Virus record (IMG/VR): IMGVR_UViG_3300032331_001807 | Location: 1-55,643 of that record | Length of the DNA stretch: 55,643 nucleotides | From: a virus | Lineage: Duplodnaviria > Caudoviricetes | Strand: one strand, 5' to 3' | Shown: positions 4,888 through 48,730 of the stretch, piece by piece | Layout: every line of letters starts with the position of its first letter | Position numbering within the stretch: position 1 is the stretch's first letter | Made by a program: the position numbers and the translations under genes | The notes under the pieces: model-generated | The model's input: only the letters and a program-made list of their open reading frames with translations | Told to the model about the DNA's origin: nothing | Database searches by the model: none

Positions 4888-5388
4888 TCACGCCACGAAG
4901 CGTTCAAGGTTGTCCAGAACGAAGTCTTGGTGGAAGAGGACGGCCCTGCTGAAGCTCTTGATGTCCTCGGCGTACCGCTTGAAGTCAGCGCCTTGGGTCG
5001 GACCTTCCGCCTTGTTGAGTCGTTCCGCCTTGTCGGCCTCGGACAGGATGGCCCCGAAGTACTTCTCGACGACGCCCTTGGGATTGCCCCTCCCAGCGAG
5101 GAGCGCCTTGCGAAGCGCGGCCCCGCCCCCCTCAAGGTCGATGAAGGTGGGCATCACGTCGGCCCCGCCTTTCTTGCCCAAGTAGGCGTCGAGGATCTTC
5201 ACGACCTTCGCGCCACGTTGGAGGACATCTGAATCCCGGTCGCCCGTGCTGGTGAACTCGTCGAGAAGCTCACCAAGCTCCGGGCTCACGCCCGCCGTGC
5301 GAGCGCCCAGAAGAGGCAGGAGATGCGGTCGGAGGTCGGGCTGCTGATACGCGAGCCGGATGACCTTGGAGCGAAGGGTGTTGGACAT
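4888..5388 (-). CDS. putative virion internal protein with shared leader
   Basis: Starts MSNTLRSKVIRLAYQQPDLRPHLLPLLGARTA. Confidence 0.75.
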   Translation of the reverse strand: MSNTLRSKVIRLAYQQPDLRPHLLPLLGARTAGVSPELGELLDEFTSTGDRDSDVLQRGAKVVKILDAYLGKKGGADVMPTFIDLEGGGAALRKALLAGRGNPKGVVEKYFGAILSEADKAERLNKAEGPTQGADFKRYAEDIKSFSRAVLFHQDFVLDNLERFVA

Positions 5389-5400
5389 GACTGTATCCGT

Positions 5401-6003
5401 TCAGCGAACGGCACCCTTGAGGTCGGGGTAGTTCTTGGTGAGGAAGTCGATGGCGCTGCGGGCCGAGCGGGTCATGTACAGCCCCGCCCCGATGCTCGCC
5501 ATGTGGGACTTGAGAGCCGTCTCGGCGTAGGGCTTGTCCTCGGGCTTGAGGTGGTAGCTCTGGACGAGAGTGTCCAGCACCCACGGGATGCTGTCGGTCG
5601 GGGCTTGGCCCGTGAGCCAGCTACGAACGGCGATCCCACTGGCGTAGGCGTCGGCCTCAAACTGTGCCCGTGCCACCGAGTCCGTGAGGTAGAACCACGC
5701 GAACTCGACGTTGGTGTCGATGAACTGGAGGACGTGCTCGTTCTCGTGGGTGACCACCTCGCAGAGCGAGAGCGGGTTCTCACGGATCGACTTGGGCAGG
5801 TAGATGGTCTTGGCGAGGGTGGTGGCGAAGCGGGTCATGAAGTCGGCCCCGCCCGGGAGCCCACTGGAGAAGTTCGACCCGATGTCCATGCCGAAGGACA
5901 CGGCCTTCATGAGGGTCGAGTCCTCTTTGTTCTCGACGGTCGAGCCGTACTCGACCGAGAGGTGCTCTTGGAGCTTCTTGGCGACGATGGCGAGGTCGGT
6001 CAT
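5401..6003 (-). CDS. putative zinc metallopeptidase (HExxH)
   Basis: VVTHENEHVLQF with a downstream FEADAY glutamate. Confidence 0.6.
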   Translation of the reverse strand: MTDLAIVAKKLQEHLSVEYGSTVENKEDSTLMKAVSFGMDIGSNFSSGLPGGADFMTRFATTLAKTIYLPKSIRENPLSLCEVVTHENEHVLQFIDTNVEFAWFYLTDSVARAQFEADAYASGIAVRSWLTGQAPTDSIPWVLDTLVQSYHLKPEDKPYAETALKSHMASIGAGLYMTRSARSAIDFLTKNYPDLKGAVR

Positions 6004-6005
6004 GG

Positions 6006-6281
6006 TCAGTTACCTCCCGAGGTGGTGGGGGCGCAGCGGTCTTGGGGGAGGCAGGCATGGACGCCCGTCGCCGGGTCGAGGCAGCACATGCCGCCCGAGG
6101 CCGAACAGCTACCGACGGTCCCGACGGGACGCCAGAGGTTGCCGCCGCAGACGTAGGGATGGCCGTTGAGGCACGTCGAAGTGCCGTTGACGCACGACCC
6201 GGATTGAGGAGTGACGGTCCCGGTCTGTTGGCAGGGACGGCAGGACATGACGAACAAGACGAGCGGGAGCAGCCTCTTCAT
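6006..6281 (-). CDS. small Cys-rich secreted/lipoprotein
   Basis: MKRLLPLVLFVMSC signal/lipobox-like start, followed by about 9 more Cys. Confidence 0.6.
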   Translation of the reverse strand: MKRLLPLVLFVMSCRPCQQTGTVTPQSGSCVNGTSTCLNGHPYVCGGNLWRPVGTVGSCSASGGMCCLDPATGVHACLPQDRCAPTTSGGN

Positions 6282-6292
6282 GCGACCACCTT

Positions 6293-7489
6293 TCAAGCAT
6301 GGCCGCAGATAGGGCAACTACCAGCATCCCCGAGGATCTCCTGCACCTCATGGACGGCTTTCTCGTACTCCTCCGTGGTGCGATGAAGCTCGCGGGTGGT
6401 CTCCGAGAAGGACTTGGCCCGGGAGGCGAGGGCCTCCTGCAACGCTTGGTAGTCGGCCAGCCCCGCGATCCCCTTGGCGATGGCCTCCGGGTCGGGGAGA
6501 GGGACCGCCACGGCGGCACGAAGACCCTCCCCGTGCTCGACCGCCGCCGCGAACGGTTCCATCCTGTCGCGGAGGTCGGTGAGGAGGGCGATGGCGTCTG
6601 ACACCTTGCGGACGCGGGTGGCGTCGGCTTCGTCGGGGACCGTGATGCCAGCCACGGGGGCGAGAACTTCGATGACCCGGGTGACCTCCCCGAGCTTGGC
6701 TTGGAGCTCCCGAGCCTCGTCGAGCGCGGCGAGCCCCGTGCGGATGTCCGCCACCCCGTCGGGCACCCCCACGTCCCGAACGGGACGGAGGTTGGATGCG
6801 GTCAGAGACAGGGAGAGGTGCGCGTCGTGGAGGGCACGGGTCTCGTCGTCTTGGCGACGGAGGTCGGCCACGAGGGCGTCGAGGGCTTCGGCCTCTTGGG
6901 CGAGAGCCTCTACGTCGTCCAGCCCCGCATAGCTGGCATCCTGTGCCTCGTACCGGGCCACGTCTCCGAGGCGGACCTTGAGCTCCGAGGCCAGCGTGCG
7001 CTTGTCGCTCTGGGTGTTCCGCAGGGCCTCGTTGAGCACCCCCACCCGCGTCACGTCGGCTACGGACTCCGCGAGAACGGAACCCGGTTGATCGAGGAGG
7101 AACACCTGCCCGGTGAACTGCTGGGCGAACTGGGGCCACACCTCCCGGCCAGCGGCGGTGATCGGGACCACCCCGAAGGACTCCACCTCCACGGGGACGC
7201 CCGAGCCCACCTTGTCCAGCACCTTGCCGTCCACGGTGTAGCGGTTGACCTTCTCGCCCTTCTCCCACGAGAGTGAGCGCCCGTCACCGAACGTCACGTC
7301 CACTCGGCACTGGTCCTTGCCGTAACGGACGTACTTGGTGCCCCGTGCGTTGGTGAACGCGCCGTGGACGGCCCGGAGCATGGCGCTCTTGCCCGTGTTG
7401 TTCTGGCCCGTGATGACGGTCAGACCCGAGACCTCGATCTCGGCATCCTCGATGGATTGGAAGTCCCGCACCCGGATCTTGACCGTCAT
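6293..7489 (-). CDS. SbcC/Rad50-like ABC ATPase, N-terminal half ending at the zinc hook
   Basis: RDFQSI, Walker A GQNNTGKS, Q-loop (FAQQF), long coiled coil, terminal CPICG. Confidence 0.85.
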   Translation of the reverse strand: MTVKIRVRDFQSIEDAEIEVSGLTVITGQNNTGKSAMLRAVHGAFTNARGTKYVRYGKDQCRVDVTFGDGRSLSWEKGEKVNRYTVDGKVLDKVGSGVPVEVESFGVVPITAAGREVWPQFAQQFTGQVFLLDQPGSVLAESVADVTRVGVLNEALRNTQSDKRTLASELKVRLGDVARYEAQDASYAGLDDVEALAQEAEALDALVADLRRQDDETRALHDAHLSLSLTASNLRPVRDVGVPDGVADIRTGLAALDEARELQAKLGEVTRVIEVLAPVAGITVPDEADATRVRKVSDAIALLTDLRDRMEPFAAAVEHGEGLRAAVAVPLPDPEAIAKGIAGLADYQALQEALASRAKSFSETTRELHRTTEEYEKAVHEVQEILGDAGSCPICGHA

Positions 7490-7501
7490 CACCCGCTCCT
7501 A

Positions 7502-14098: not shown

Positions 14099-14189
14099 GA
14101 GTGATGTTACGCCCGGTTGGAGAGGCTATAACCGCGCCAGAGTGATGCCCGTCTGGTTGCGGGCGAACATCCACAGACGAGGTAGTTCA

Positions 14190-14957
14190 ATGTCGGATCT
14201 GAAGATCAAGCTCCTGCGTGTTGCCAACAGCCTCCCCAAGGGAGACCCCAAGCGTCGCGCCATCGCCCACCTGTTCCGCGAGGAGGAGGCCGAGACGGCC
14301 CTCCGCACCGCCGCGTCGAAGATGCCCACGGTGCTGGTGCAGGGCTACGATGGGTTCACGAACCAGATTCGTGACCTGTCGGCTGCGGAGACGCACCTCA
14401 AGACCATCCAAGCGGAGATCGACGCGGTGGCGGGCGACCTCCTCAAGCGTCTGAAGGAAGCCGACAAGACCTACAAGGACGCCGTCGAGGCGATCAAGGA
14501 CGCCTACAAGGAGAACTTGGAGGCGCAGGGCAACGTCATCATCGAGCGCAAGACCGCGCTCGTCGAGGCGCAGGCGAAGCTCAAGGTCGTGGCGGTCAAG
14601 GGCACCCTCAACTCCGTGCAGGAGCAGATGCTCGCGGCGGTGACCGAGAAGTACGGCAAGGAAGTGGCCGACTTCATCATGACCACCAACGAGTCGCTCC
14701 AAGAGCAGCACAAGTCGATGCGCGTGTCGCTCGACGGCTTCGTGCTGGAGGCCCGCGAGGCGTCCCCGAGCAAGACCGCTGCCCAGAAGCAGGCGTTCAG
14801 CATCGTGAGCGTCCTGTCGAAGTTCCGCGACTACATCAAGAACGGCTGGGACAAGATCATCCAGATCGCCAAGACGGCGACCGACGTGATCTTCGGCAGC
14901 GGCAAGAAGGTCGAGAAGGCCCACAACGAGTTCATGTCGGCGCTCAAGAGCGTCTGA
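14190..14957 (+). CDS. putative virion protein with a variant leader
   Basis: MSDLKIKLLRVANSLPKGDPKRRAIAHL...LRTA; lone + strand gene with RBS GAGG and its own terminator. Confidence 0.75.
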   Translation: MSDLKIKLLRVANSLPKGDPKRRAIAHLFREEEAETALRTAASKMPTVLVQGYDGFTNQIRDLSAAETHLKTIQAEIDAVAGDLLKRLKEADKTYKDAVEAIKDAYKENLEAQGNVIIERKTALVEAQAKLKVVAVKGTLNSVQEQMLAAVTEKYGKEVADFIMTTNESLQEQHKSMRVSLDGFVLEAREASPSKTAAQKQAFSIVSVLSKFRDYIKNGWDKIIQIAKTATDVIFGSGKKVEKAHNEFMSALKSV

Positions 14958-22689: not shown

Positions 22690-23991
22690 TCACAGACCCA
22701 TCATCTTGCGGTACTTCTTGTTGTACTCGCGACGCGCCGCCGAGCCGTTCGTGCCCGAGTTCGCCGTCCCGTAGCCGCTGTACATGTCCGTGTGCTCGTA
22801 GCAGCCACCCTCGCCGTCGGGGGTGCAGGGAGGCGAGCCCGGACCCGGGGCGGGGTCGTCGTAGTCCTTCGCCTTCGGCTTGTAGCCGGGACCGCCCCAC
22901 GGACGGCCCGCCATGATCTCCTCCGCGACCTGTTCCGCCGAGGGGTGCGCGTCCGCCTGCTTGAGCAGGGGCAGGAGGTGGGGACGGAGCTCCGGGCGCT
23001 GGTGGGCGAGACGGATGACCTTGTTGCGGAGGTCTCGCTCCGCTGCGGTGATGTTGCGTGCCATGATGTTCTTCCTTGCTGCCTTCCTACGAAATGCGTT
23101 GGCGAGAGCGAGAGCCTCTTGGGCGTCAGCGATGAACTTGGGGTACTGCCCGGTGTCGGACATCCTCTTGAAGTTCGCCTCCATCCACTTCTTGAACTTC
23201 CCCTTGATCGCCCCGAACTGCGGGCGACTCATGCCGATGCTATCGGCGTACTCCGTGTCCGAGATGTGCGTACCCTTCACCACCTCGTCGAAGAAGGGAC
23301 GGAACGCATCCCCCTCGTGCTTGGTGAGGGCGGCGGGGATCGCAGTGTCGTGGACCCACTCGGCGTACCCGCGACCGAACGCGCTGTTGGGGTCCTCCAT
23401 CGCGGTCTGCTCCAAGTCCGCGAGCGACGAGAACGCGAGCTCCGACTCGTCCGCCTCCATCCCAGAGGCTCCCCAGCTTTCTTGGCGCTTGCCCCGGCTC
23501 TTCTCGGAGCGGATCACGTCGATGCCCCGCTTGCGGGCGTAGGAAACCACACGGCCAGCCACGTCCCCGAGGGCCTTCTCGGGGTCGGACTTCACGGCCT
23601 CGGGGGTGAAGTGCGTCCCGGCTTGGTAGAAGAAGTTGCCCTTGCCCGAGGAGAGCCCGTTCACGAAGCTCTCTTGGAGGACCTCCTCACCCGTGCCACC
23701 CTTGCCACGCAGCATCGCGTCGATGCCCCGGACCACCGTGTCGTACACGCCCGTGTTGGGCTTCATCCACGGCGAGTGCTTCACGTCCATCGTCGGGTCG
23801 CCGTAGAGCTCCGTGAGCATCTGGGCGATGGCCCGCGTCGGGTTCCGGCCCGACAGGCTGTTGAAGGGCTTGCCGAGCACCCCTTCCAAGAACTGGGCAC
23901 GGGCCAGCATGTCGTCGCTGGCTCCCGCCTTCTTGATGCGCTGGAGGGCTGCGAGGGCCATCCCGAACTTGATGCTCGCCAGACGGTTCAT
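22690..23991 (-). CDS. divergent sigma-factor-like protein fused to a leader-bearing C-terminal module
   Basis: EEVLQESF and SYARKRGIDVIRSE (region 2-like); SDTEYADSIGMSRPQF (region 4 HTH-like); internal MARN...DLRNKVIRLAHQRPELRPHLLPLLKQA. Confidence 0.55.
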   Translation of the reverse strand: MNRLASIKFGMALAALQRIKKAGASDDMLARAQFLEGVLGKPFNSLSGRNPTRAIAQMLTELYGDPTMDVKHSPWMKPNTGVYDTVVRGIDAMLRGKGGTGEEVLQESFVNGLSSGKGNFFYQAGTHFTPEAVKSDPEKALGDVAGRVVSYARKRGIDVIRSEKSRGKRQESWGASGMEADESELAFSSLADLEQTAMEDPNSAFGRGYAEWVHDTAIPAALTKHEGDAFRPFFDEVVKGTHISDTEYADSIGMSRPQFGAIKGKFKKWMEANFKRMSDTGQYPKFIADAQEALALANAFRRKAARKNIMARNITAAERDLRNKVIRLAHQRPELRPHLLPLLKQADAHPSAEQVAEEIMAGRPWGGPGYKPKAKDYDDPAPGPGSPPCTPDGEGGCYEHTDMYSGYGTANSGTNGSAARREYNKKYRKMMGL

Positions 23992-24079
23992 GTAGGTCAA
24001 TCCTCGATGGGGCTGTGACACCGAGCCCGCCGTCACCGGGGGCACACGAGAGCGAGGGTATAAGCCCGCTACCGAGGTC

Positions 24080-24114
24080 GATTCTCGGTTACACCCCGGC
24101 CCCCGGCTTCGTGG
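24080..24114 (+). promoter_or_regulatory. class-1 promoter GGTTAC-N17-CGTGG
   Basis: One of 13 copies with identical spacing. Confidence 0.75.
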
Positions 24115-24220
24115 GGGAGGTGTCCCGGTCGAATCCGCTTGCCAAGGACGACCGATTCCATTATGGTCCCCCCTCGTAACCCAAGGGTCTTTGACCCCAC
24201 GGGACACCACGGGAGCTCTC

Positions 24221-24949
24221 ATGACCACTGCTGTTTTCGGGGGATCTGCTGTCTGTGCGGCCTACCGCGAGGCCGTCGCGAAGGACGAACTCCTCGCGTT
24301 CGCGAAGGGGTCTACGCCTCTGGCGGTCGCGGTGCGGGAGGCTCTCGCACCTGCGCCCAAGCCCGAGCCGAACCTCACGGCTCGATGGCTCGCGGCCAAC
24401 CCCGGGGTCTACCAGACCCTCGTCCACCACATCGGCATGAAGATGCCGTTGTCGAGGAAGCTCGACGTGGTGGAGGATCACGTCCAGACGTTCCTCGCCC
24501 GGATCGTCGAGCGGGACACCCTCGCCCCGTTCCTCCGGGGAGGGAAGTCCGTGCAGATGTCCGTGCTTCGCATCTGGGCCTACCAGAGCGCCAGCACCGA
24601 CTTCCGCCGCTGGGGCGTGGACGCCAGCCTCCGCACGACCCGTGGGGCGAAGACCTCGCGTGAGGTCCAGAAGGGCAAGGCGTTCCGTCCCGTGGTGTCG
24701 CCCACCGCTGCACGGACGATCCCCCAAGAGGGCACCGACCCCGACTACCATGACCCCAACGAGGCGTCGCCCGAGGATGCACTCGCCCGCAAGTCGCGGG
24801 TGGACGTGGTGCGCCGCCACCTCGCTCGACTCGGCAAGAGCGACCTCGTCGCCGCCGTGGACCACCTCCTCGACGGGGGCTCCCTGTCCGACCTCGACGG
24901 GGGCATCGCGGCGCAGTTGACCGCCGCCCTCCGCACCGTCCGGGCGTAA
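24221..24949 (+). CDS. ECF-like sigma factor, divergent
   Basis: VVEDHVQTFLARIVE and LRIWAYQSASTDFRR resemble ECF region 2; SPEDALARK linker; region 4 looks short or degenerate. Confidence 0.5.
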   Translation: MTTAVFGGSAVCAAYREAVAKDELLAFAKGSTPLAVAVREALAPAPKPEPNLTARWLAANPGVYQTLVHHIGMKMPLSRKLDVVEDHVQTFLARIVERDTLAPFLRGGKSVQMSVLRIWAYQSASTDFRRWGVDASLRTTRGAKTSREVQKGKAFRPVVSPTAARTIPQEGTDPDYHDPNEASPEDALARKSRVDVVRRHLARLGKSDLVAAVDHLLDGGSLSDLDGGIAAQLTAALRTVRA

Positions 24950-27590: not shown

Positions 27591-27914
27591 CTACATCCCA
27601 ACGGACAGGTTTCGGTCTCTGAACTCGATCCAGCGGATCTCGCGAGCCGCGAGCACCTTGCGGAGGTCCTCCGGGTCCATGCGCCCCGGCAGCGTGAAAT
27701 CCACGCTGTAGCCGAAGCCTCCGAGCCAGACCATCTCGGCCTTCACCCCGAGGGTTTTCTCGATCATCTTCACCAAGTTGAGATAACTGGGCGACAGGTC
27801 GTACAGGTCGATCTCGTCCGCAGCGGTCTTGTCTCGACCGAGCAGCGGGAGAAGTTCACCCCGCAGAGCGGGTTGTTGGTGCGCGAGACGGATGAGCTTG
27901 GAACGAAGTGACAT
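27591..27914 (-). CDS. putative virion internal protein with shared leader
   Basis: MSLRSKLIRLAHQQPALRGELLPLLGRDKTA. Confidence 0.75.
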   Translation of the reverse strand: MSLRSKLIRLAHQQPALRGELLPLLGRDKTAADEIDLYDLSPSYLNLVKMIEKTLGVKAEMVWLGGFGYSVDFTLPGRMDPEDLRKVLAAREIRWIEFRDRNLSVGM

Positions 27915-32300: not shown

Positions 32301-32303
32301 CGG

Positions 32304-34691: not shown

Positions 34692-34751
34692 CGCAAGGCG
34701 GCGGGGTATAGGGCGGGAAACGGGTGGGTGCCCTACCTAGCCCGTGATGAG

Positions 34752-35318: not shown

Positions 35319-35321
35319 CGG

Positions 35322-37280: not shown

Positions 37281-37354
37281 GGGGTCTCCGTGGGGGTGTC
37301 GCTTCTACGGTGGCGATATAGTGTGTACCGCCCGTTAGTCGGTCACGCGATGCT

Positions 37355-37600
37355 CTAGGTCGTCGTGATTCTGTAGATCGTCGCGCCCGCCGGGACGGGG
37401 AGGCTCGTCGTGCTGCCGTACACCCAAGCGTTCGTGCGGTAGTAGTAGGTCGTCATACCCCCACCTCCACCACCGCCCCCCGGAGTGAACGAGACGGGAG
37501 TGATGGCCGATACCGTCGCGATCCCCGGGCTGTGGCTCCCACCGACGACGTAGCTCGTCGGCGTGATCGCAGGGACGATGCTGATGTTCTCCACCGCCAT
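37355..37600 (-). CDS. small virion-type protein
   Basis: MAVENISIVPAITP..., poly-Gly linker. Confidence 0.55.
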   Translation of the reverse strand: MAVENISIVPAITPTSYVVGGSHSPGIATVSAITPVSFTPGGGGGGGGMTTYYYRTNAWVYGSTTSLPVPAGATIYRITTT

Positions 37601-38808: not shown

Positions 38809-38830
38809 CGTCTATCTCCGAGTCTCCGGG

Positions 38831-39751
38831 CTACGCCCACGTCACTTGCAACGCCGAGCCATTCACCGTCAGAACGTCGCCCACCGTCCCGCCTGTGACG
38901 GACATCCGCACCTCGTACAGGGTCGGAGCCAGAGGGGATGGGACGGGGGCGCTGTACGAAGCCGGGGAGGTCGTGTTGATCGGACCCAAGCTCACCAATA
39001 GCGAGGGTGCCGCCGTCACGTCCCAGAGCTCGATGGTCCCTGTCTGCGCCGGGGCCGTGCTCACCGCCGCCGTGGCGATGAAGTTCCACGTTGTCGTCCT
39101 GCCCGTGAAGGTGTACGCGGTGTCCACGATGGCACCGGGGGAGCCTCCCACGGCCACCGTCCCGAGCGTCCCGTCCACCGACACGAGTCCCGAGAGCGGG
39201 ATGTACGCCGGGGGGAACGCTGGCATTGCGTGGACGTGTCCCGCATCGCTCACGTCCCCCGTGCTCCCGGCGGATGCTGTCCCGAGGTCTTGCGGGTTGG
39301 AGCTCGACAGTTGGACGACGCCAGCCGCCGACGTGGTGGCGGCATCCACCGAGAGGTTGAGGTCTCCCGAGAGACCTCCACCGCCCGACAGAGGGGAGGT
39401 GGTGTTGACGTTCCGGGTCGTGGGGACTGCGCCCACGTCACTGGCCGAGGGGAACGGGTGAACGTGATCGAGACGGGCCACGTCCGACGAAGACCCCGGC
39501 GCGGCCAAAGACCCAAGGGATGCCGGATTGCTGACCGTGAGGGCAGTCGTCGGAATCGCCCCCACGTCGCCCGCGTTGGGCATCTGGTGGACGTGATCCG
39601 ACGCGCTCGCATTCAGTGCGCTGCCGGGAGCGGGCGACCCCAAGTTCTGTGGGTTGCTCGTGCTGATCGTGCGAAGGCTTCCCGTCCCTTGAGGGCCGTC
39701 CGTCGTGAGCGTGGTGGGCGTGGTCGTGAGTACCGGGTACCGAGTGGTCAT
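38831..39751 (-). CDS. tail fibre-like protein with HxH repeats
   Basis: Three SNPxxLG...(D/G)HVH repeats. Confidence 0.7.
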   Translation of the reverse strand: MTTRYPVLTTTPTTLTTDGPQGTGSLRTISTSNPQNLGSPAPGSALNASASDHVHQMPNAGDVGAIPTTALTVSNPASLGSLAAPGSSSDVARLDHVHPFPSASDVGAVPTTRNVNTTSPLSGGGGLSGDLNLSVDAATTSAAGVVQLSSSNPQDLGTASAGSTGDVSDAGHVHAMPAFPPAYIPLSGLVSVDGTLGTVAVGGSPGAIVDTAYTFTGRTTTWNFIATAAVSTAPAQTGTIELWDVTAAPSLLVSLGPINTTSPASYSAPVPSPLAPTLYEVRMSVTGGTVGDVLTVNGSALQVTWA

Positions 39752-39752
39752 G

Positions 39753-40898
39753 TCAGTTCACCAGTGCCGTGCCCGCGAGGTTCCAGCGCACGTTGGTAGC
39801 CGCCGCCCCGGTGACCTTCACCAACACGTTGGGCGCGGTGGCCGTCACCGTCACCGTCCACACGGTTCCCGGGTCCGTGGGAGTGATGACCACGTCCCGA
39901 ACCGTCACCACGCCCGCCGCGTTCGTGACCGTCGCCCACACCTTGAACGCCACCTGCGCGGAGAGGTCCGTCTTGTAGGCGTTGACGGTGAGGTCGTAGA
40001 AGTGCGCCCGGTTCGCCGTCGTGGGGGTGACCGTGAGGGTTTGAGTCACGGCGTTGGTGGTCAGCAACGTCGCCGTGGGGAGCACATCCGTCCAAGGCAC
40101 CGGGGGATCACCGAGGATCACCAAGTCGGCGTTGCCCAGCAACACCATGCTGGCCGAGCCCAAGAACGTGATCGAGTCCGCGACGAGGTACTGGCACCCG
40201 TCGGGGACCGTCACCACTTCCGGGTCGGGGATGACCTTCCGGGTGAGCCCCGGCACCCCGCCGCTACCGCCACCGACGGAGTTCCAGCCCCACGCGCTGC
40301 CGTCGTAGTAGCAGAGGGTGAGGGCGCTCGTGTCCGTCGCCCAGTAGAACACCCCTTGGTAGTACGGACCCGCTGTCGGTCGAGACGCAAGGGTGCCCGA
40401 GAGGGTCGTGCTACCCCACTCCGGGTTGACGACCCCGGCGCGGAGGGACTGACCGAGGGTGCCGAGGGGCAACCGTTCCGAGGTGGTGATCCCACGGAAC
40501 AGGAGGTCGCCCTGCGTCGTGAGGAGGGACTGCGGGATCGCCCCGATGACCGAGGGCGTCACCGGGCTCCACGTCCCGTCGCCCCTCAAGAAGTTGCCAC
40601 GGCTGGCGACGGGCGTCGTGGGGACGAGGCCCCGCTCCCCGCTCTCCGTCGGAGACGCACCCGTGAACGTGCGACCCACCGGGGCTTGGTTGAGGTTCGT
40701 GCCCGAGACGAACTGCGTGGTGACACGCCCCGCGATGAGTAGGGAGTTGAGGCTCCCGTACTCCAGCGAGTTCTGCACGTCGTTGACGTACAGGAGGTCG
40801 CGAGACTCGCCCGGTGCCAGCGGGGCCAACGACGGCAAGTCGGGCACCGCCACAACAGAGGCGGACACGTTCGTGAGTCGGAGGGTTAGGCCGCGCAT
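39753..40898 (-). CDS. putative fibre/virion structural protein
   Basis: GERGLVP, FLRGDGTW and GDLLFRG...LPLGTLGQ fibre-shaft motifs. Confidence 0.65.
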   Translation of the reverse strand: MRGLTLRLTNVSASVVAVPDLPSLAPLAPGESRDLLYVNDVQNSLEYGSLNSLLIAGRVTTQFVSGTNLNQAPVGRTFTGASPTESGERGLVPTTPVASRGNFLRGDGTWSPVTPSVIGAIPQSLLTTQGDLLFRGITTSERLPLGTLGQSLRAGVVNPEWGSTTLSGTLASRPTAGPYYQGVFYWATDTSALTLCYYDGSAWGWNSVGGGSGGVPGLTRKVIPDPEVVTVPDGCQYLVADSITFLGSASMVLLGNADLVILGDPPVPWTDVLPTATLLTTNAVTQTLTVTPTTANRAHFYDLTVNAYKTDLSAQVAFKVWATVTNAAGVVTVRDVVITPTDPGTVWTVTVTATAPNVLVKVTGAAATNVRWNLAGTALVN

Positions 40899-41254: not shown

Positions 41255-42793
41255 TCACTTGGCGAGCACGACACCCGTGAGCAGCACCTCGCACGCCACG
41301 GACATCGCCGCCCGGAGAGACCCCAGCACCACGCCCACGGGGTCTGCCACGGCGGGGGCCTCCCAGAAGTTCTCCACCGACTCCCGCACCGGGCACCAAC
41401 CCACCCACGGGTCGTCCCCCAAGTTGCCCAAGGCGTCGAACGACACGCCCGCCCGAGCACACAGAACCCGTGCAGGCTCCTCCAGCGCCCGTGACAATAC
41501 GCTACCAGCCATGCTGTGACGTAACTCGTCTTGCACGCTAACATAGTGTAGTGTACGGCCAGCCCCCGGAACCACCCCTCCCTTGAGGGTCTCGCGGACG
41601 GCGTGGAGGGTGTCTTCGACTCTCGACCGTCGTTCCACGGCCTCGGCGTTCGTGTAGCCGCCGACCTTGAGGACGCACAGGCCACCGTCCATCGCACCTG
41701 CCCTCTCCCGGTACCTGTCTCGGTCGTAGTCGGAGGTTGTCTCGTCCGCACGTCGAAGGAGCTCTGCTACCCGTGCGGCGATACGGTCTTCCGAATCGGG
41801 GTAGGAGAGGATCTCCGTGCGGTTCTTCTCGACGGTGATCTTCCGGGCGCAGCCGAGCCACTCGGCCTTGAAGTTCTGCACGTTGTCACCCGCGACGGGG
41901 TCCACCAAGAGGCAGTTTGAGACCGCCGCCACGTCCTCCAACCAATCGTGGGTTTCGTAGAGGGAGGGGTTGAGGTAGGTGACGGCGATGCAGGGGAGCA
42001 CCCCCTTGGCGTCGTTCATCACCATCGTCGTGAGGGCGCTCCCACCCAGCCTCGGGCAGAACAGCACGAGCCCGCGCCCCGGCCACTGGGAGGCTTCCTC
42101 CATGAGCGTCTGCACGTCGTCGAACGAGAGCAGGGGCGCGTTGACCACGGCCACCAACGGGCCGTCGAACACCCTCGGCACCCCGTCGCCCTTCGCCATC
42201 GCGACTGCTGCCCATCCCACGTCGAGCACCAGCCCGTCCCGGTAGTCGGCCTCGATGCCCACCCCGTCACCGGGCTGGATCAACACGGTGCCGTTCTCAC
42301 CGACCCGCAGGACGGCGTCCACCACCGTGGAGCTCACCAACTCGTCGCCGTGGGAGGCCATGAGGGCCACGCGGCGCAGGACGGCCTCGTCGGGCTCCCG
42401 GGCCATCTCGGTGATGAGGCTCTCGACGGGGTGGAGATAGTCGCGCAGTTCTTGGACGAGGGCCACCGGGTTCCACGTCCGAGGGGTGTAATGGTCCAGC
42501 GCAGCTTGGACCAGAGCATTTGCCAACAGGATGGTGGTGCTCGTACCATCCCCCGAACTGCCATCCACCACGGAGGTCGCCGCACGAACCAGAGAAACAC
42601 CGAGTCTCTCGTACCCTTGAAAACGTACCTCACGCGCAAGTGATGACCCATCGGTCGTCACCAGCACTCTGCCCTTCTTGTCCACTGCCACCTTGGACCC
42701 GTGTGGCCCGTAGGTGGTCGCTACCAGCTTTGCAAGCTCCGTCATCCCGCGCGTGAGGGACCCCAATGCGCGCTTGCCTTCGATGACCTTCAT
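41255..42793 (-). CDS. GroEL-like chaperonin, divergent
   Basis: TYGPHG, VTTDG, GDGTSTT, LKVGG, RVEDTLHAVR, GGVVPGAG, DPVGVV. Confidence 0.88.
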   Translation of the reverse strand: MKVIEGKRALGSLTRGMTELAKLVATTYGPHGSKVAVDKKGRVLVTTDGSSLAREVRFQGYERLGVSLVRAATSVVDGSSGDGTSTTILLANALVQAALDHYTPRTWNPVALVQELRDYLHPVESLITEMAREPDEAVLRRVALMASHGDELVSSTVVDAVLRVGENGTVLIQPGDGVGIEADYRDGLVLDVGWAAVAMAKGDGVPRVFDGPLVAVVNAPLLSFDDVQTLMEEASQWPGRGLVLFCPRLGGSALTTMVMNDAKGVLPCIAVTYLNPSLYETHDWLEDVAAVSNCLLVDPVAGDNVQNFKAEWLGCARKITVEKNRTEILSYPDSEDRIAARVAELLRRADETTSDYDRDRYRERAGAMDGGLCVLKVGGYTNAEAVERRSRVEDTLHAVRETLKGGVVPGAGRTLHYVSVQDELRHSMAGSVLSRALEEPARVLCARAGVSFDALGNLGDDPWVGWCPVRESVENFWEAPAVADPVGVVLGSLRAAMSVACEVLLTGVVLAK

Positions 42794-42847
42794 CACGCGG
42801 ATTTTACCGCACGAGGTCACCGAGGGGAGTGCGAGAAGGACTCCACC

Positions 42848-43333
42848 ATGACTGAATCCATCGTAGCCCTTTGGCTCACGGTGATGCTCTCCTTCGCCCG
42901 CCACGAGCCTCGTGAGCGGTTGGAGACCATCGCCCGTACCGTCGTCGAAGCGACGAGTGACCCGCAGGAGCAAGCTCTCCTGCTGACCATCTCGTTCTAC
43001 GAGACGGGGTTTGGCCGAGCGGGCATTCCCTTTGGCCTCTCGTCGGTGAACCGCCGGGGACACACGCTGGCGGACGACTCCCAGTCGTCCCTGCGTATCC
43101 TCCGACGGTCCTACGCCCGCTGCGAGCGTGGCTTGGCCCAGATCCTCGGGCACTACCACCACGGCAACGGGTGCCGACCAGACCCGTACTCCTACAACGA
43201 GGCCGAGACCGTCCGCCGCATGGTGGGCCTCTACTACCGTCGCGCCTACGCCACCGGGGTCACAGTGTCCCCGGCACCAGTGTTCCTTCGGTACGCCGAC
43301 AATCGGCCCCGACCGGGAGGTAGGCGACGCTGA
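42848..43333 (+). CDS. hypothetical protein, possibly lytic transglycosylase-like
   Basis: AAGGA RBS; ISFYETGF and HYHHG resemble lysozyme-like motifs; hydrophobic N-terminus. Confidence 0.45.
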   Translation: MTESIVALWLTVMLSFARHEPRERLETIARTVVEATSDPQEQALLLTISFYETGFGRAGIPFGLSSVNRRGHTLADDSQSSLRILRRSYARCERGLAQILGHYHHGNGCRPDPYSYNEAETVRRMVGLYYRRAYATGVTVSPAPVFLRYADNRPRPGGRRR

Positions 43334-43359: not shown

Positions 43360-44085
43360 GTGTCCCCGGGGCCGTTCGCTTTCGTAGAGTCCCAGACCGT
43401 GCCCAAGGGTGTTCACAAGCGAGGGTTGCTGGAGCGCCCCATCCGAACCTTTGAGGCGTTCGCCGCCAACGACCGCAACATCGGCCACGACTTCTGGCTC
43501 TTCCACGGCATCAACTACCTCTCGGGCAACCCGTTCCCCGGCATCTACCGAGGGGACCAGATTTTCCGAGGGCGGATCTTCACCCACATCATGGACGCGC
43601 ACCTCGACGCGGAGGGAGCCCTCACCCCGCGAGGGCGGGAGTGCCTCGTGTGGGCCAGCACCCTCCCCCGCGAGCTCTACCGGGCGTCCGTGTACGTCAA
43701 GGCGTTCGCCCGGAAGTACAAGCGCGACCCGCTGAAGCCCGACGACCCCTACGTCGAGATGGCCATCGTCGCCGTGGCAGAACTCATGGTCGCGCCGACC
43801 AGCGGGTGGGGCCGGAAAGACCCGCCGACGGCGAGGGAGTACTACTTCCGCCCGTCTCTGCTGTACCACTGGCAGATCGCCCGCGCCGCCAAGAACGTGC
43901 TGCGCCACGACCCCCGCAGTCGCGAGGGGTGGGCGTTCTGGGCCGACCTTCATCGTCGGACCATCGAGAAGTACGGGTTGCCCCCCGGCGTCGAGCCCTT
44001 CCGGCTGGACTACAAGGAGCGGAACAACGGCGGGTACTTGGTGGGGATGGGCGACATCCGAGGCCACAAGACCAAGGTGCGCTAG
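43360..44085 (+). CDS. hypothetical protein
   Basis: 241-aa ORF, typical codon bias; start uncertain. Confidence 0.65.
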   Translation: MSPGPFAFVESQTVPKGVHKRGLLERPIRTFEAFAANDRNIGHDFWLFHGINYLSGNPFPGIYRGDQIFRGRIFTHIMDAHLDAEGALTPRGRECLVWASTLPRELYRASVYVKAFARKYKRDPLKPDDPYVEMAIVAVAELMVAPTSGWGRKDPPTAREYYFRPSLLYHWQIARAAKNVLRHDPRSREGWAFWADLHRRTIEKYGLPPGVEPFRLDYKERNNGGYLVGMGDIRGHKTKVR

Positions 44086-45284
44086 CGGATCGCCTTGATC
44101 TGATCGTGGGTGGGGTTGAACACCACCTTGAGGCCAGCCTTGCCAGACGTAGGCGAGGTGATCGGGGTGATCTTCACCTTCACCTTGCGAGCCATATCTG
44201 CCTGCTCGCCCGAGATGGTCAGAGCGATCTCGGCGTTGGGCGTGTCGTTGCCTTGGAAGTACTCCGAGTCCATTGCGTACTGCTCCCCGTAATCGTCCGC
44301 GATGCGTTGTTCAAGTGCCTTCTCGACCGCAGCGAGGCCCGCCGCCGTGAACACCTTGTTCTGGTCGAGGACGTAGGCCACTCCACCCTTCGCCGCGTCG
44401 AACAGCGGTGCCATGTACTGGGCTACGTCGTAGGGGACCATCTTGCCCGCCGTGCCCCACGTCAACGGGACGGCCATCGCGTTCCCCTCGTACACGGGCT
44501 TGTAGCCCTTGGGTTGACGCAGTGCAGCGAAGTGGTCGGTGCTGGCCACCCTCACTCCCACCTCTTGGAATCGGGCTTTGACCGGGTCTGGTACGTCTAC
44601 TGGAGAGAGAACCTTCCACCGAAGCAGATCCCTCTCTGGGAGAGTTGTCTGCTTGGCTTTGCTGGGTTTGGTGCTGTCCACCCAGACGATGGTCACGATG
44701 TGCCCCTTGGCCGTGTTGCTCTTGGTCACCGAAGAGGGGATGAACCAGAACTCGTGCCCCGCCGCTTCGTCGGTGAACACCTTCCCCAATTGGGTCTCCA
44801 ACCACGTCTTCGCCGGGGGGAGCGCAGCGGTCTTCGCGCTCGCCGCCTTGGGGCGGTTGCGCTGACGGAGCAGGTACAGCGCCGTCTCGTGAGCGTTCGC
44901 CGTCGCCATGAGGAAGTCGTCGAGGCCGAGGGACATCTCCCCGCTGGCCTTGAGCTCGTCGTAGGCGAGCTTGAGCGCCCGCTGGAGGTGCTCCTCCATG
45001 AGCAGGGCGCACTGGTAGGGGTTGTCCCCCACGCCCGACGCCGCGTGGTTGGCGACGAACTTGTGCGTGTCCGAGAGGAGCGACAGGTTCGTGATCGCGC
45101 CCGGGCCGTAGATCCCGACGATCTTCTCGGCCAGCGTGTCGATCTCCTCGCCCACAGCCTCGTAGAGCTTCTGGAAGAGCAGGTGGTCCCCGTAGAACGG
45201 CTCGCCACGGACCTTCCAGTGGGCGGTCTGGTGCGACCACTGAAGGGCGCGGAGGATGGCGAGAAGTTGCAGCAGGATATTCAT
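44082..45284 (-). CDS. Dps/ferritin-like domain fused to further modules
   Basis: HQTAHWKVRGEPFYGDHLLFQKLYE...IDTLAEK. Confidence 0.75.
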   Translation of the reverse strand: MNILLQLLAILRALQWSHQTAHWKVRGEPFYGDHLLFQKLYEAVGEEIDTLAEKIVGIYGPGAITNLSLLSDTHKFVANHAASGVGDNPYQCALLMEEHLQRALKLAYDELKASGEMSLGLDDFLMATANAHETALYLLRQRNRPKAASAKTAALPPAKTWLETQLGKVFTDEAAGHEFWFIPSSVTKSNTAKGHIVTIVWVDSTKPSKAKQTTLPERDLLRWKVLSPVDVPDPVKARFQEVGVRVASTDHFAALRQPKGYKPVYEGNAMAVPLTWGTAGKMVPYDVAQYMAPLFDAAKGGVAYVLDQNKVFTAAGLAAVEKALEQRIADDYGEQYAMDSEYFQGNDTPNAEIALTISGEQADMARKVKVKITPITSPTSGKAGLKVVFNPTHDQIKAIR

Positions 45285-45299
45285 GGGTGAGAGGTTCCT

Positions 45300-45581
45300 T
45301 CAGAGTTTGAGGATGTACTTCGCGTAAATGCGGTCGATCTCCTCGTCGGTGGCGTCTTCCAGCACTACGGTGTTGTAACCCTCGACGGCGAGCATGATCT
45401 TGTGCTTCCCGCCACGGACCATCCCATCACCGATCCCTTTGAACCTCTTGAAGATCTCGGCAACCTTCTTCTTTCGGTCCGCAGGGGGCATAGCCGCTTC
45501 CTTCAGGAGAGGGAGAAGGTGGGGGCGGAACTCTGGGCGCTGGTGCGCGAGCCGGATGACCTTGGAACGAAGAGTGCTCAT
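45300..45581 (-). CDS. putative virion internal protein with shared leader
   Basis: MSTLRSKVIRLAHQRPEFRPHLLPLLKEA. Confidence 0.8.
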   Translation of the reverse strand: MSTLRSKVIRLAHQRPEFRPHLLPLLKEAAMPPADRKKKVAEIFKRFKGIGDGMVRGGKHKIMLAVEGYNTVVLEDATDEEIDRIYAKYILKL

Positions 45582-45596
45582 GTGTTGGGTTTCTTC

Positions 45597-46415
45597 TCAG
45601 CGCAGGACGGATTTGAGGTAGTCGAACCACACGTCGTCCCGCGCCCACTGGGTTGCTTGGCTGTCAATCGCGTCGAGGTCCACGCCCTTGGACTTGACGT
45701 AGGCGTCCACGGCGTCGAGGTTGAGGAGCTTCTCGTAGAGCTTTCCCGTGACGTAGGACTTCATCTGCCGCTCGACGGGAAATCCACCGGGGTCTGCCTT
45801 GAAGCCCAACGGGGTCGCACCCCGCTCCACATCCCGAACCGCCCGGTCCATCACGGGGCGGACCTTCGTGTCGAAGTACTCTCGCACGAGGGCGTCCACG
45901 TCACGCTGGGCGTTGGTCTTGGTCTCCTCGACCCACTGCTCCAGCGCACGGGTGTGGGCATCCTCTTGGGCGCGCATCGCCGTCTCGATGGCCCGGAACT
46001 GGGCACCCGACACACGGTTGAGCTCGCCCTTCTTGTCGAGCTTCACGAGGAGGGCGGTCTGGGACTTGGCCGACCCATACTCCTTCTCGTTGCCGTCCGA
46101 CACCCGCCACATGGCCAGAACTTGATGGTCCGTGTCGTAGGCCCAGAGGTACTTCCACGGGTCGTCGGGTCGAACGTGGATGATGCGAGCCCCTTCCTCG
46201 GCCTCCTCGGGGAGCTCCATGAGGTCGCCCATCAGCCCGCCAGAATGGGTGGACAGGACGTACTTGTCGCCCGCGAGGGTCACCGTGTGCGGGTTGCGCG
46301 GCGCGCGGCCCACGAACGGGATCACGTCCCCCGCCGTCTTGAGGAGGGGCAGGAGGAGAGGACGGAGACCGGGCTGGGCATGGGCGAGGCGGATGACCTT
46401 GGATCGCAGGTTCAC
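45597..46415 (-). CDS. putative virion internal protein with shared leader
   Basis: MNLRSKVIRLAHAQPGLRPLLLPLLKTA. Confidence 0.8.
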   Translation of the reverse strand: MNLRSKVIRLAHAQPGLRPLLLPLLKTAGDVIPFVGRAPRNPHTVTLAGDKYVLSTHSGGLMGDLMELPEEAEEGARIIHVRPDDPWKYLWAYDTDHQVLAMWRVSDGNEKEYGSAKSQTALLVKLDKKGELNRVSGAQFRAIETAMRAQEDAHTRALEQWVEETKTNAQRDVDALVREYFDTKVRPVMDRAVRDVERGATPLGFKADPGGFPVERQMKSYVTGKLYEKLLNLDAVDAYVKSKGVDLDAIDSQATQWARDDVWFDYLKSVLR

Positions 46416-46428
46416 GGGAGGAGCTCCT

Positions 46429-47337
46429 TCAGCGCCCGTAGAGGCGGTTTTGCTTCTCGTAGAAGCTCTGCTGGTCCTTCGGGCTCAAGCCCTTGAGGTA
46501 GGCCATGTAGCGGGCGATCCCCACCTTCGCGTCCTGCTCGCCGTCTTGCGTGAGGTCTTCGTAGTCGTAGTGACTGCCCACCCAATCCGCGAGCTCACGC
46601 TGGCTCATCTCCGAGAACACGGCAGACACCACGGGCTCGGGACGACTCGGGAGTTCCCGCACCACGTCGCCCATCCACCTGTCTTGGATCGCGTGGTACT
46701 CGGGAACCGGGATCTGCCACGCCTTCTTCGACGGGTTCCACTTCCACCCGTACTTCTTCATGACCGCGACGAACGGGTAGGTGTTGCCGCTCACGGTCAC
46801 TGTGCCCTCGGTCACGTCGTAGCGACCGGGGTAGGTGTGCTCGACCTTGAGCCCCGCCGCCTCCAGCTTGGGCTGCATCCGTTCAAGCCGCTGCCAGTGC
46901 TCGACGACCTCGCGGTCGTCACCGCCACCACCGGGACGGACCCCACGGTTGAACGCCTCTGCCGCCTCGTTGTGCTTCTTGGCGAGGGCTTGCACCACCG
47001 GGAAGGCAGCTTCTTGGAGCTTGCGGTTCTTGTAGAACTCCGCGTTGCGCCGCCCGCCGTACTTGTACAGCGTCGCGTCGATGCTCCAAACCTTGCTGGC
47101 TGAGTTCCAACGGAAGCCCAGACGCTTGAGCTCGTCACGGTAGTCGAACGTCGGCCCAGCGACATCCAGCACCCAAGAGTCTTCCACGGGGTCGGTCCCG
47201 CCGAAGTCCCCAAGGTTGACGTACTTCACCCGGATGAGTTCTTGGGTGACGCGCGCCGCCTTGAGGAGAGGGAGAAGCTGCGGACGGAGAGACGGCTGCT
47301 GGTGGGCCAGACGGATGAGACGGGTGCGGAGGGTCAT
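46429..47337 (-). CDS. putative virion internal protein with shared leader and two HARP-like/GxTF...GFRWN modules
   Basis: MTLRTRLIRLAHQQPSLRPQLLPLLKAA; GPTFDYRDELKRLGFRWN and GNTYPFVAVMKKYGWKWN. Confidence 0.75.
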   Translation of the reverse strand: MTLRTRLIRLAHQQPSLRPQLLPLLKAARVTQELIRVKYVNLGDFGGTDPVEDSWVLDVAGPTFDYRDELKRLGFRWNSASKVWSIDATLYKYGGRRNAEFYKNRKLQEAAFPVVQALAKKHNEAAEAFNRGVRPGGGGDDREVVEHWQRLERMQPKLEAAGLKVEHTYPGRYDVTEGTVTVSGNTYPFVAVMKKYGWKWNPSKKAWQIPVPEYHAIQDRWMGDVVRELPSRPEPVVSAVFSEMSQRELADWVGSHYDYEDLTQDGEQDAKVGIARYMAYLKGLSPKDQQSFYEKQNRLYGR

Positions 47338-47368
47338 ACCCCCTGCCGGGAATAGACTCTCTACCGGG

Positions 47369-47857
47369 TCACGAGCTCCGGGTCATGGCCCGGGAGTAGT
47401 CCCAAGTGAGCTCCTCGCCAGCTTTGATGCTCCGCATGGCGCGGAACTCGATGGCCGAGAGACCCTGCCGAAGCACACACACGAGGTTGGGTTCCCGCCC
47501 CGTCGTGTCGAAGCGGTCGAAGTTATAGAGGAGCCCCTCGCCAGAAATGATGCACCGCTTCCCGTTCACCCACGGGAACAGGTAGCGGTTCACCGTCGGC
47601 ATGGAGAGGGACTGGAGGGACTCGTCCTCGGGCAACGGCATCACCCAGCACCGCTCGACGGTCACGCCACGCTCGATGTCGTCACGGGCGAACACGCCCC
47701 TGCCACGCTCCCGGCTGATCCACCGGGCGATGATCGGCCACCCGCCCGGAGGTTCCGGCTTCGCCGCCTTGAGGCAATCACCACAGACGAACGCCGCTTT
47801 GTGTTGCCAGTCGTTGGTGGGTGTCGGGCTTTTCAACCCGCAGTCGGGGCAGATCAT
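47369..47857 (-). CDS. SET-domain protein with N-terminal zinc ribbon
   Basis: CPDC...CGDC; GRGVFARDDI; RAMRSIKAGEELTWDY. Confidence 0.85.
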   Translation of the reverse strand: MICPDCGLKSPTPTNDWQHKAAFVCGDCLKAAKPEPPGGWPIIARWISRERGRGVFARDDIERGVTVERCWVMPLPEDESLQSLSMPTVNRYLFPWVNGKRCIISGEGLLYNFDRFDTTGREPNLVCVLRQGLSAIEFRAMRSIKAGEELTWDYSRAMTRSS

Positions 47858-48039
47858 AGCTTCCTTCCCAAGACGTGCAGCATCTTGGCTTGCTGGGAGT
47901 CGAGCCTTCGACCCTCACGGAGCGTCTCACGGAGCTTCTGATACTGGACGTGGTCCTCGGGCGGTAGGGAAGCCAGACGCTTCTCGATCCGATCCAACCA
48001 CCGCTCTGCCTTCTCGTTGGAGAACTTGATCTCGGGCAT
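47854..48039 (-). CDS. hypothetical protein
   Basis: 61-aa coupled ORF. Confidence 0.6.
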   Translation of the reverse strand: MPEIKFSNEKAERWLDRIEKRLASLPPEDHVQYQKLRETLREGRRLDSQQAKMLHVLGRKL

Positions 48040-48040
48040 C

Positions 48041-48319
48041 CTACGGGTGAGGCTCCTTCAGCAGGGCTACCGTACCGACGCGCACCTCACCCCTCGGCAC
48101 CCACTCCCGAATGAACAGGGCCACGAGCTTCCCGTCGGGACGGGCAAGGTGACCGACGCACCCGGACATCATCGTGGCGATGTTCCGGGTCCGCACGAGC
48201 TCCTCGCCCAGCACGTTCCGAAGGTGATCGTTGTAGTCCTCGGGATGGACGACGACGGTCGTACACCCAGAGACGGTAGGGATGAGCCCCCGCAGGAAGT
48301 CCGCGAACTTGGTATCCAT
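48041..48319 (-). CDS. hypothetical protein
   Basis: GAGGA RBS, 92 aa. Confidence 0.65.
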   Translation of the reverse strand: MDTKFADFLRGLIPTVSGCTTVVVHPEDYNDHLRNVLGEELVRTRNIATMMSGCVGHLARPDGKLVALFIREWVPRGEVRVGTVALLKEPHP

Positions 48320-48367
48320 CTCTCGTCCTCGGTGGGCGAGTTACCGTTCACCGATGAGAGCGTCGGA

Positions 48368-48730
48368 TCACTTGGCGTTGTGGACCGCCGAGATCACCGA
48401 AGCGATGAGATCGTCGTGGAACAGTTCGGCGCTCCCCCCGCTGAAGAACTTGTTGAACTTGCCGCTCTCCCAAAGGGCCTTCTTTACCAAGGCCGCGACA
48501 TTTCGCGACGTGTCCTCCACGATCCCTTGGAGGTCGTTGCTCGCGTTGTCGAGGTTCTCTTGGGCCTCTTCCATGTCCTCCTCGGACGCGGGCACCTTGT
48601 CGAACTCCAGAAGGTACGGGTTGAGCTCTTCGCCCAGATTGCCCGCCGCCTTGAGGAGAGGGAGAAGCTGCGGACGGAGATGCGGCTGCTGGTGAGCCAG
48701 CCGAATGAGGGAGGATCGCAGGGAGCTCAT
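48368..48730 (-). CDS. putative virion internal protein with shared leader
   Basis: MSSLRSSLIRLAHQQPHLRPQLLPLLKAA. Confidence 0.8.
   Translation of the reverse strand: MSSLRSSLIRLAHQQPHLRPQLLPLLKAAGNLGEELNPYLLEFDKVPASEEDMEEAQENLDNASNDLQGIVEDTSRNVAALVKKALWESGKFNKFFSGGSAELFHDDLIASVISAVHNAK

Follow-up and report, generated by a model that had tools for sequence, protein, structure and literature searches.

A conserved 25-residue tag on unrelated proteins of a clade of uncultured huge phages, with capsid loading as a candidate function

Introduction

Why would proteins with nothing else in common, encoded far apart on one phage sequence, begin with the same short peptide? The question is raised by a 55,643-bp stretch of viral DNA (IMG/VR record IMGVR_UViG_3300032331_001807; Duplodnaviria, Caudoviricetes; 65% GC; CheckV completeness 13%), which is called the window throughout, at its full length. 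An original prediction, made from the letters of this stretch alone, had noticed a leader of about 28 amino acids (aa) on several open reading frames (ORFs) lying between positions 4,888 and 48,730, and had proposed that it is a portable packaging tag which, like the capsid-targeting sequence of phage T4 internal proteins, loads diverse cargo into the head for delivery at infection. We find that the leader is a modular peptide tag that recurs on thousands of proteins and is kept at the protein level within a clade of uncultured huge phages. Judged from its sequence and distribution, it is best read as a portable docking module that would bring unrelated phage proteins to one shared, highly conserved partner, for which the inside of the assembling head is a candidate location.

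Results

One peptide on seven unrelated proteins

A six-frame regular-expression search with the peptide LRSKVIRLAHQQPxLRPxLLPLL returned exactly seven matches in the window, all of them on the minus strand. A profile hidden Markov model (HMM) of 25 positions, built from these seven copies and run on 1030 stop-to-stop six-frame segments, gave seven hits (E 8.5e-18 to 2.5e-14), the next best segment having an E-value of 0.5, and the shorter string [LIV]IRLA occurs in the six frames solely at the seven tag places. Six copies start a gene and one is internal. The leader claimed for the ORFs starting at 5388, 27914, 45581, 46415, 47337 and 48730 is thus confirmed by both methods, as is the internal copy placed near 23040-22965, the core of which spans 23031-22957; the conserved core is somewhat shorter than first thought, at about 25-27 residues. 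The tagged genes of the window, with their 25-aa cores, and one ORF that was tried and rejected are as follows.

4888..5388, minus strand: tagged gene 1, 166 aa; tag core 5302-5376, corresponding to protein residues 5-29
22690..24228, minus strand: internal-tag gene, open frame of 512 aa; tag core 22957-23031, followed by an 88-aa C-terminal tail
27591..27914, minus strand: tagged gene 2, 107 aa, ATG at 27914; tag core 27834-27908
45300..45581, minus strand: tagged gene 3, 93 aa; tag core 45498-45572
45597..46415, minus strand: tagged gene 4, 272 aa, GTG start; tag core 46335-46409; orthologs P0183, P0197 and P0254
46429..47337, minus strand: tagged gene 5, 302 aa; tag core 47257-47331
48368..48730, minus strand: tagged gene 6, 120 aa, ATG at 48730; tag core 48647-48721; helical body
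14187..14957, plus strand: non-member ORF, the supposed variant, without P13, R16 and LLPLL

The last of these, which starts MSDLKIKLLRVANSLP and had been taken for a variant of the leader at 14190 with no strand given, scores -3.4 bits with the tag HMM (E 0.48 at Z=1) and was rejected as a member.

Among the window copies 13 of the 25 positions are invariant, including two prolines and three arginines. Amino-acid identity between copies averages 75% and nucleotide identity 70%. Of the 392 codon pairs that encode identical residues, 205 use different codons; selection therefore acts on the peptide, as had been supposed from the differing codons. A DNA-level cause such as a recombination site or a regulatory element was rejected, since half of the identical residues differ in codon and nucleotide identity is 70%. 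The bodies behind the tag are unrelated, as originally described: no BLASTP match between different bodies falls below E 0.03, and paralogy was rejected on the same evidence, the best cross-match having E 0.03. No Pfam-A or PHROGs v4 family matched over the tag at family threshold in any of the seven window proteins. A promoter and terminator scan of positions 44000-51000 yielded no promoter-like site and fewer terminator-like sites than shuffled sequences, and comparison by eye of the regions upstream of the tagged genes revealed no obvious common motif.

Anatomy and layout of the tag

The consensus of 394 unique instances is (S/T)LRSKLIRLAHxNPELRPHLLPLLK(K/E)AA, in which Leu1, Arg2, Leu8, Ala9, Pro13, Arg16, Leu20 and Pro21 are each at least 91% conserved. 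Beyond the tag there is no conservation, with A, G, E, P and K as the abundant residues, and a search of all 394 instances for a downstream cleavage motif found no conserved site after K(K/E)A(A/G). For the natural tandem P0051, AlphaFold2 predicts a helix-kink-helix per unit and hence four helices, with a predicted local distance difference test score (pLDDT) of 73 and a predicted template modelling score (pTM) of 0.53. In the model of the 120-aa product of tagged gene 6, which has a mean pLDDT of 59.5 and is indicative only, the tag forms helices at residues 4-14 and 16-29, residues 30-46 have pLDDT below 50, and a helical body follows. As modelled, the tag would be a terminal helical peptide on a flexible linker, the arrangement expected of a docking tag of the encapsulation-peptide kind.

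Layout was examined in 249 tagged proteins, the top-scoring database matches, a set biased to multi-copy proteins because scores add up. Of the 91 that hold a single copy, 83 have it at the N-terminus, eight have it internally and none at the C-terminus. The other 158 hold two to five copies, most commonly N-terminal plus internal (66) or N-terminal plus C-terminal (42), and tandem doubles with linkers of 8-10 residues occur in at least 13 proteins. An N-terminal copy is present in 211 of the 249. Some multi-copy proteins, such as P0171 and P0079, look like fusions of tag-plus-body modules. The tag is a free-standing module, with the N-terminal leader as its default position.

The leader might have been a known stand-alone domain, and the nearest candidate was the LRV repeat (PF01816/PF25591), likewise a helix-Pro-helix of about 24-26 residues; two tagged proteins even carry true LRV repeats. 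Matches to LRV_2 and DUF6193 do fall over the tag in 63 multi-copy relatives, all of them below threshold (E 0.008-0.6). Membership was rejected, however, as the profile-profile probability given by hhalign is 0.34% and no LRV protein was found in the window or in four relatives. A Foldseek search of the tandem-tag model against the PDB found no match at E<=0.001 either, so that no Pfam, PHROG or PDB fold accounts for the tag.

A tag confined to one clade of uncultured phages

Searched against 1.84 billion representative proteins, the seven-copy profile matched 3200 protein clusters at E<=1e-3 and 340 at E<=1e-10. Ten tagged proteins that were looked up are all metagenomic, one of them on a 530-kb contig. 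The window has relatives, G001 (266 kb) and G002, that are 75-97% identical in nucleotides to parts of it, and related contigs hold between five and 17 tag copies each (LR745208.1, 11; G001, 10; G002, 15; G003, 10; G004, 5; G005, 9; G006, 17; G007, 5; G008, 8; G010, 5). Zero copies were found in Bacillus phage G and Tunturiibacter phage Tunturi_5. Among 50,697 phage records, two tag-bearing tblastn queries matched only LR745208.1, and a degenerate DNA pattern of the tag had three matches in 596 Gb of prokaryote genomes, all on contigs of metagenome-assembled genomes (MAGs). Because copies recur in related contigs, are absent from phage G and Tunturi_5 and almost absent from cellular genomes, the tag is, on these sequence comparisons, a trait of a single clade of uncultured huge phages. 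Searches of CC-licensed PubMed Central papers and bioRxiv turned up no printed account of the motif.

Evidence tying the tag to the head

Pfam and PHROG scans found no capsid, portal or terminase gene in the window, and the head genes considered here are those of its relatives, in whose loci genes were called in this analysis by a GC3-based or longest-ORF procedure. The head module of G001 encodes a terminase, a portal, a K/E-rich 599-aa protein, a 240-aa protein with a domain that we call FDPxEIG, a zinc-ribbon protein, the prohead protease, a 508-aa scaffold-like protein, a 226-aa protein and a 293-aa major capsid protein. The capsid protein of the relatives matches phage G gp27 (PDB 6wkk, E 1.5e-60; PF25209), which is of the HK97/phage-G type; its identity is 47.6% with the Tunturi_5 protein and 38% with the phage G one. 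In phage G, annotation assigns capsid decoration to the gene that lies upstream of the one for the capsid protein. Sequence comparison thus makes the window part of an uncultured huge phage with a phage-G-like capsid protein. Across G001, G003, G006-G008 and LR745208.1, whose GC contents run from about 50% to 65%, this protein is 85-94% identical; the neighbouring head genes are far less conserved (51-72%, the range of the 226-aa decoration-like protein, and 45-80%). It has 1938 homologs at E<=1e-10, the best 120 of which are all at least 88% identical. The capsid protein would be a suitably invariant receptor for the tag. A prediction of its complex with the window tag, in which a capsid alignment made of database proteins only was paired with the window tag alignment, gave an ipSAE of 0.00 with no controls and is evidence for neither side.

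One link between tag and head is positional. In LR745208.1 (485 kb) the head operon runs protease, scaffold-like gene, a tagged 134-aa gene, decoration-like gene and capsid gene. A second link is the FDPxEIG domain of about 60 residues, which is common to 15 of the 249 tagged proteins, typically in the layout tag-FDP-tag, and to the 240-aa head-module protein of G001 (BLASTP E 3e-12 to 1e-4). At locus L069 a tagged FDPxEIG protein is encoded 2.7 kb upstream of terminase and portal, and in G006 the domain ends a 1523-aa protein encoded just upstream of the genes for the protease and for the scaffold-like, decoration-like and capsid proteins. The alignment of the G001 protein with P0032 extends into the second half of the tag (LRCDLLSDSI vs FRSDLLPLIQ), which hints that the G001 protein itself holds a degenerate tag.

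The prohead protease may provide a third link. In the 233 predicted proteins of G001, [LIV]IRLA occurs nine times, against 0.3 expected from composition; eight occurrences are in tags and the ninth lies 20 residues from the C-terminus of the protease, where EARTLIRLA is found in both G001 and LR745208.1. At one position of this helix, G007 has K in its protease and in three of its five tags, and G001, LR745208.1 and G006 have R in the protease helix and in most tags, a co-variation that involves four lineages and one position and is too small to count.

The bodies attached to the tag offer a further hint. Effector-type bodies were found in a few relatives, namely ART-PolyVal in P0233, 2H-SAK in P0239, DUF2958 in P0172 and GNAT in P0011 and P0154 (the latter below the Pfam cut-off), along with a weak RelA/SpoT match; Pfam and PHROG detected no effector domain in the seven window bodies. 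Domains of such types are assigned by Iyer et al. (2017, PMC5512222; also PMC7824862) to proteins injected with phage DNA.

Discussion

A docking module, possibly for the head

The peptide is so conserved, sits on such unrelated bodies and is held on a linker, which is why we regard it as a docking tag for a shared partner. The hairpin, a small helix-kink-helix on a flexible linker, would bind a partner rather than act alone, and the most likely destination of the tagged proteins would be the inside of the assembling head. The partner could then be a head component, possibly at a site shared with the prohead protease's C-terminal helix; multi-tag proteins, including the FDPxEIG family of the head module, would serve as adaptors or core proteins, and the tagged cargo would be packaged, ejected and enter the host with the DNA. 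We put the chance that capsid loading is the function of the tag at a little short of even. The original proposal thus stands insofar as the tag is portable and rides on diverse cargo, whereas its capsid-targeting and ejection part is plausible and circumstantial.

The T4 model on which that proposal leaned is only partly followed. As summarised in PMC7411985 from Mullaney and Black 1996, the capsid-targeting sequence of T4 internal proteins IPI-III and of Alt is an N-terminal peptide of about 10-20 residues, described there in that position only, that binds the prohead core and is cut by gp21. The likeness lies in a short N-terminal peptide carried by unrelated proteins of one phage (six of the seven window copies) and in the cargo, since the T4 protein Alt is presented in that literature as an ADP-ribosyltransferase and ART or GNAT domains occur in some tagged relatives. 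Here, however, the tag is a 25-residue two-helix unit that may also be internal, C-terminal or present in two to five copies, has no conserved cut site and, in the window and G001, lies mostly outside the head module; moreover, the head is of the HK97/phage-G type and not of the gp21/gp22/gp23 T4 type. The relation is one of analogy, not of membership.

Other systems resemble the tag in different respects. In P22, the scaffolding protein docks inside the HK97-fold coat through a C-terminal basic helix-turn-helix that has been engineered as an encapsidation tag, and that can carry foreign cargo; both modules are small, basic and terminal. There is no sequence relation, though, and the scaffold-like protein of this clade is without a canonical tag. 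Encapsulation peptides of microcompartments and cargo-loading peptides of encapsulins, whose shell has the HK97 fold, are terminal amphipathic helices on flexible linkers; like the tag they sit at either terminus and are common to unrelated cargo, but they are cellular, differ in sequence, usually occur once per protein and serve far fewer cargo families. Among proteases, that of HK97 has a C-terminal targeting propeptide. The C-terminus of the protease in this clade, which ends ...EARTLIRLA(K/S)L... in G001 and LR745208.1 and so shares LIRLA with helix 1 of the tag, lacks the second half of the tag (PxLRxxLLPLL). [quoted passage not shown] MuF fusions and polyvalent proteins, as portrayed by Iyer et al. 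2017 (PMC5512222), likewise couple a constant head-associated module to variable effectors (ART, 2H phosphoesterase, GNAT) that are presumably injected; in that portrayal the constant module is a full domain of several hundred residues, against a peptide of 25 here, and most bodies in our set are small single domains.

Several observations weigh against loading into the capsid. None of the nine tagged genes of G001 lies within its head module, and four of the seven in the window cluster beside sigma-factor, SET-domain and DNA-binding genes, in what looks from its gene content like an early or middle region. The many proteins with two to five copies, some of them C-terminal, and the missing cleavage motif fit a removable leader of the T4 kind poorly. 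The FDPxEIG and scaffold-like proteins of the head module in the closest relatives have no canonical tag. The protease helix fails the tag HMM (-1.8 to -4.3 bits) and varies among orthologs (LLRLG, LVKLC, VLKLG, ILKLA), whereas the Ala is invariant in the tag; for these reasons the LIRLA match may be a coincidence. Most tagged bodies have no recognisable domain, and the phages that bear them are all uncultured.

What else could one peptide do on so many proteins? The chief rival to capsid loading holds that the hairpins bind one another, with single-tag proteins as clients and multi-tag proteins as cross-linkers of a large assembly, which need not be a capsid and could be a cytoplasmic replication or assembly factory or a condensate. 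Such an arrangement suits the repeated copies and the charged, K/E-rich spacers between them, a layout that resembles the linker proteins of carboxysomes and pyrenoids, and it suits the closely spaced tandem doubles and the four helices predicted for one of them. A symmetric contact does not, on the other hand, require that lone tags be N-terminal, as the great majority are, and the AlphaFold2 output came without a contact map, so that packing of two units against each other is a model inference at most. We think self-association unlikely as the explanation; it is nonetheless compatible with capsid loading and could be the way in which loading works. The tag could instead dock early phage proteins on host machinery that is universally conserved, for example RNA polymerase, ribosomes or a chaperone. 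Its conservation over contigs of 50-65% GC would fit this, and so would the four tagged genes adjoining the sigma-factor genes (49593-50471), a SET-domain gene and a DNA-binding-like gene, and the small size of the single-copy N-terminal proteins (median 129 aa), which is that of host-takeover proteins. Yet the related phages G and Tunturi_5 lack the tag, which tracks one narrow capsid clade and not any host group; C-terminal and multiple copies and a tagged head-module family are hard to explain on this basis, and no known host-binding motif is alike, nor any Pfam, PHROG or PDB fold. Docking on a host machine accordingly seems decidedly unlikely.

Two further possibilities concern the phage's own enzymes and the membrane. 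C39 peptidases cut N-terminal leaders off bacteriocins, and the window encodes both a protein with a C39-family peptidase domain (32304-34691; E 1.6e-7) and a GroEL-like chaperonin (41255-43162), candidates for a processing or folding enzyme that would recognise the tag, internal copies then being cut points in fused precursors; the resemblance of P0171 and P0079 to fusions of two tag-plus-body modules agrees with this. There is no double-glycine or other conserved cut site behind the tag, however, nor any sign of processing, C-terminal copies end the protein, and the C39-like domain heads a 795-aa protein in a possibly virion-related block and may be of the lysin type. We hold a handle for such an enzyme to be improbable. 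As a basic amphipathic peptide with Arg or Lys at positions 2, 4, 7 and 16 and Leu, Ile or Val at 1, 5, 6, 8, 15, 19, 20, 22 and 23, which favours termini and occurs in multiple copies, the tag might also be a membrane-targeting helix pair. With 13 of 25 positions invariant in the window and several at least 90% conserved across the 394 instances, it is far stricter than the membrane-targeting helices known to us, which keep only their physical character, and membrane targeting appears very improbable indeed.

Returning to capsid loading, a bolder version of it can be formulated, which we consider conceivable but doubtful: that the hairpin is the address system of a clade of 450-530-kb phages and loads a tenth of their gene products into the capsid. 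The hairpin would derive from, or mimic, the targeting helix of the prohead protease together with a segment of the FDPxEIG head-core protein; multi-tag adaptors would tie cargo to the core, and the head would deliver, along with the DNA, an extensive and exchangeable set of effectors. If true, no protein shell would be known to have a larger natural cargo-loading code, and engineering could re-use it directly.

Should the tag be a loading signal in the plainer sense, the proteins that an abundant, never-cultured clade of giant phages packages and ejects could be recognised from sequence alone: some 10-25 proteins per genome and thousands of families, mostly without known function, that would likely serve during the opening minutes of infection to counter defences or take over the host. 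Such a signal would also supply a short tag of natural origin, 25 residues long, with which HK97-fold shells of very large size could be loaded with cargo. If the destination is a different one, a peptide kept nearly unchanged on more than 3000 protein clusters would still point to a single hub at the centre of these phages' biology, and this hub could be searched for directly with the peptide as bait.

The tagged genes and their surroundings

The tagged genes of the window differ in how much can be said of their bodies. Tagged gene 1 has no Pfam or PHROG family, and its body is identical in database protein P0134. The internal-tag gene likely starts at 23991, giving a product of 433 aa, since database protein P0179 (433 aa) is identical to it from residue 80 of the 512-aa frame on; its layout is kept in the orthologs P0210 and P0185, and in the G001 ortholog the tag is at residues 460-492 of 555. 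Tagged gene 2 is preceded by a GGAGG ribosome-binding site and lies 29 bp downstream of an amidase/endolysin gene (27944-28741; amidase Pfam match). The 33-aa leader of tagged gene 3 is 100% identical in G001 and G002. The body of tagged gene 5 contains two GFRWN/GWKWN..K.W.I repeats and has a weak match to DUF5710 that stays below the cut-off (E 0.0022); when this body (46429-47337) was looked up in the ESM Atlas, no usable match came back. The body of tagged gene 6 recurs in P0171 and P0079, there after a second tagged module.

Elsewhere the window encodes RecA/UvsX, SbcCD, a RecD-like helicase, ribonucleotide reductase, a sliding clamp and a clamp-loader-like ORF, besides the chaperonin, the amidase, the C39-like protein, a SET-domain protein and pieces of a sigma factor. 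The SET-domain protein (lysine methyltransferase-like; 47369-47857, minus strand) is encoded within the tagged-gene cluster. Regions 2 and 4 of sigma-70 are on two adjacent ORFs, 49593-49859 and 49863-50471 (minus strand), and the G001 sigma factor is a single 260-aa ORF (L035:16544-17323); the window arrangement could reflect a split gene, a frameshift or a sequencing error. The C39-like peptidase domain is N-terminal in its 795-aa protein (minus strand), which belongs to a block of large proteins that have no known family (28779-40898); for one counterpart of this block in G001 there is a weak PHROG match to a virion structural protein.

The prohead protease gene varies greatly in length, encoding 474 aa in LR745208.1 (L001:2163-3587), 918 aa in G001 (L040:3071-5824) and 1371 aa in G006 (L050:10763-14875). 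The extra sequence of G001 falls exactly between ...LSMGC and SIDGS... and ends ...VHNC; by these features the insertion looks like an intein. The ribonucleotide reductase of G001 also has an insertion (1002 aa, compared with 649 aa in the window). The scaffold-like protein of G001 (L040:5840-7363) contains KKAA/KKAS sites followed by basic helices (KKASLRRQAKK, KAAIRRLAG) as well as a CIRIAQ helix, which loosely echo the start of the tag; none of them scores with the tag HMM.

As to the host, the closest cultured relative by capsid protein (PP885688.1) infects Tunturiibacter, a member of the Acidobacteriota, and two of the three MAG contigs with the tag pattern (L032-L034) are labelled Acidobacteria or Terriglobia. 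Downstream of the G001 capsid gene, at about 107.9-108.4 kb (L040:12941-13351), a stretch translates as GRLDG and (G/N)FRYG repeats and is probably a DNA tandem repeat, not a gene.

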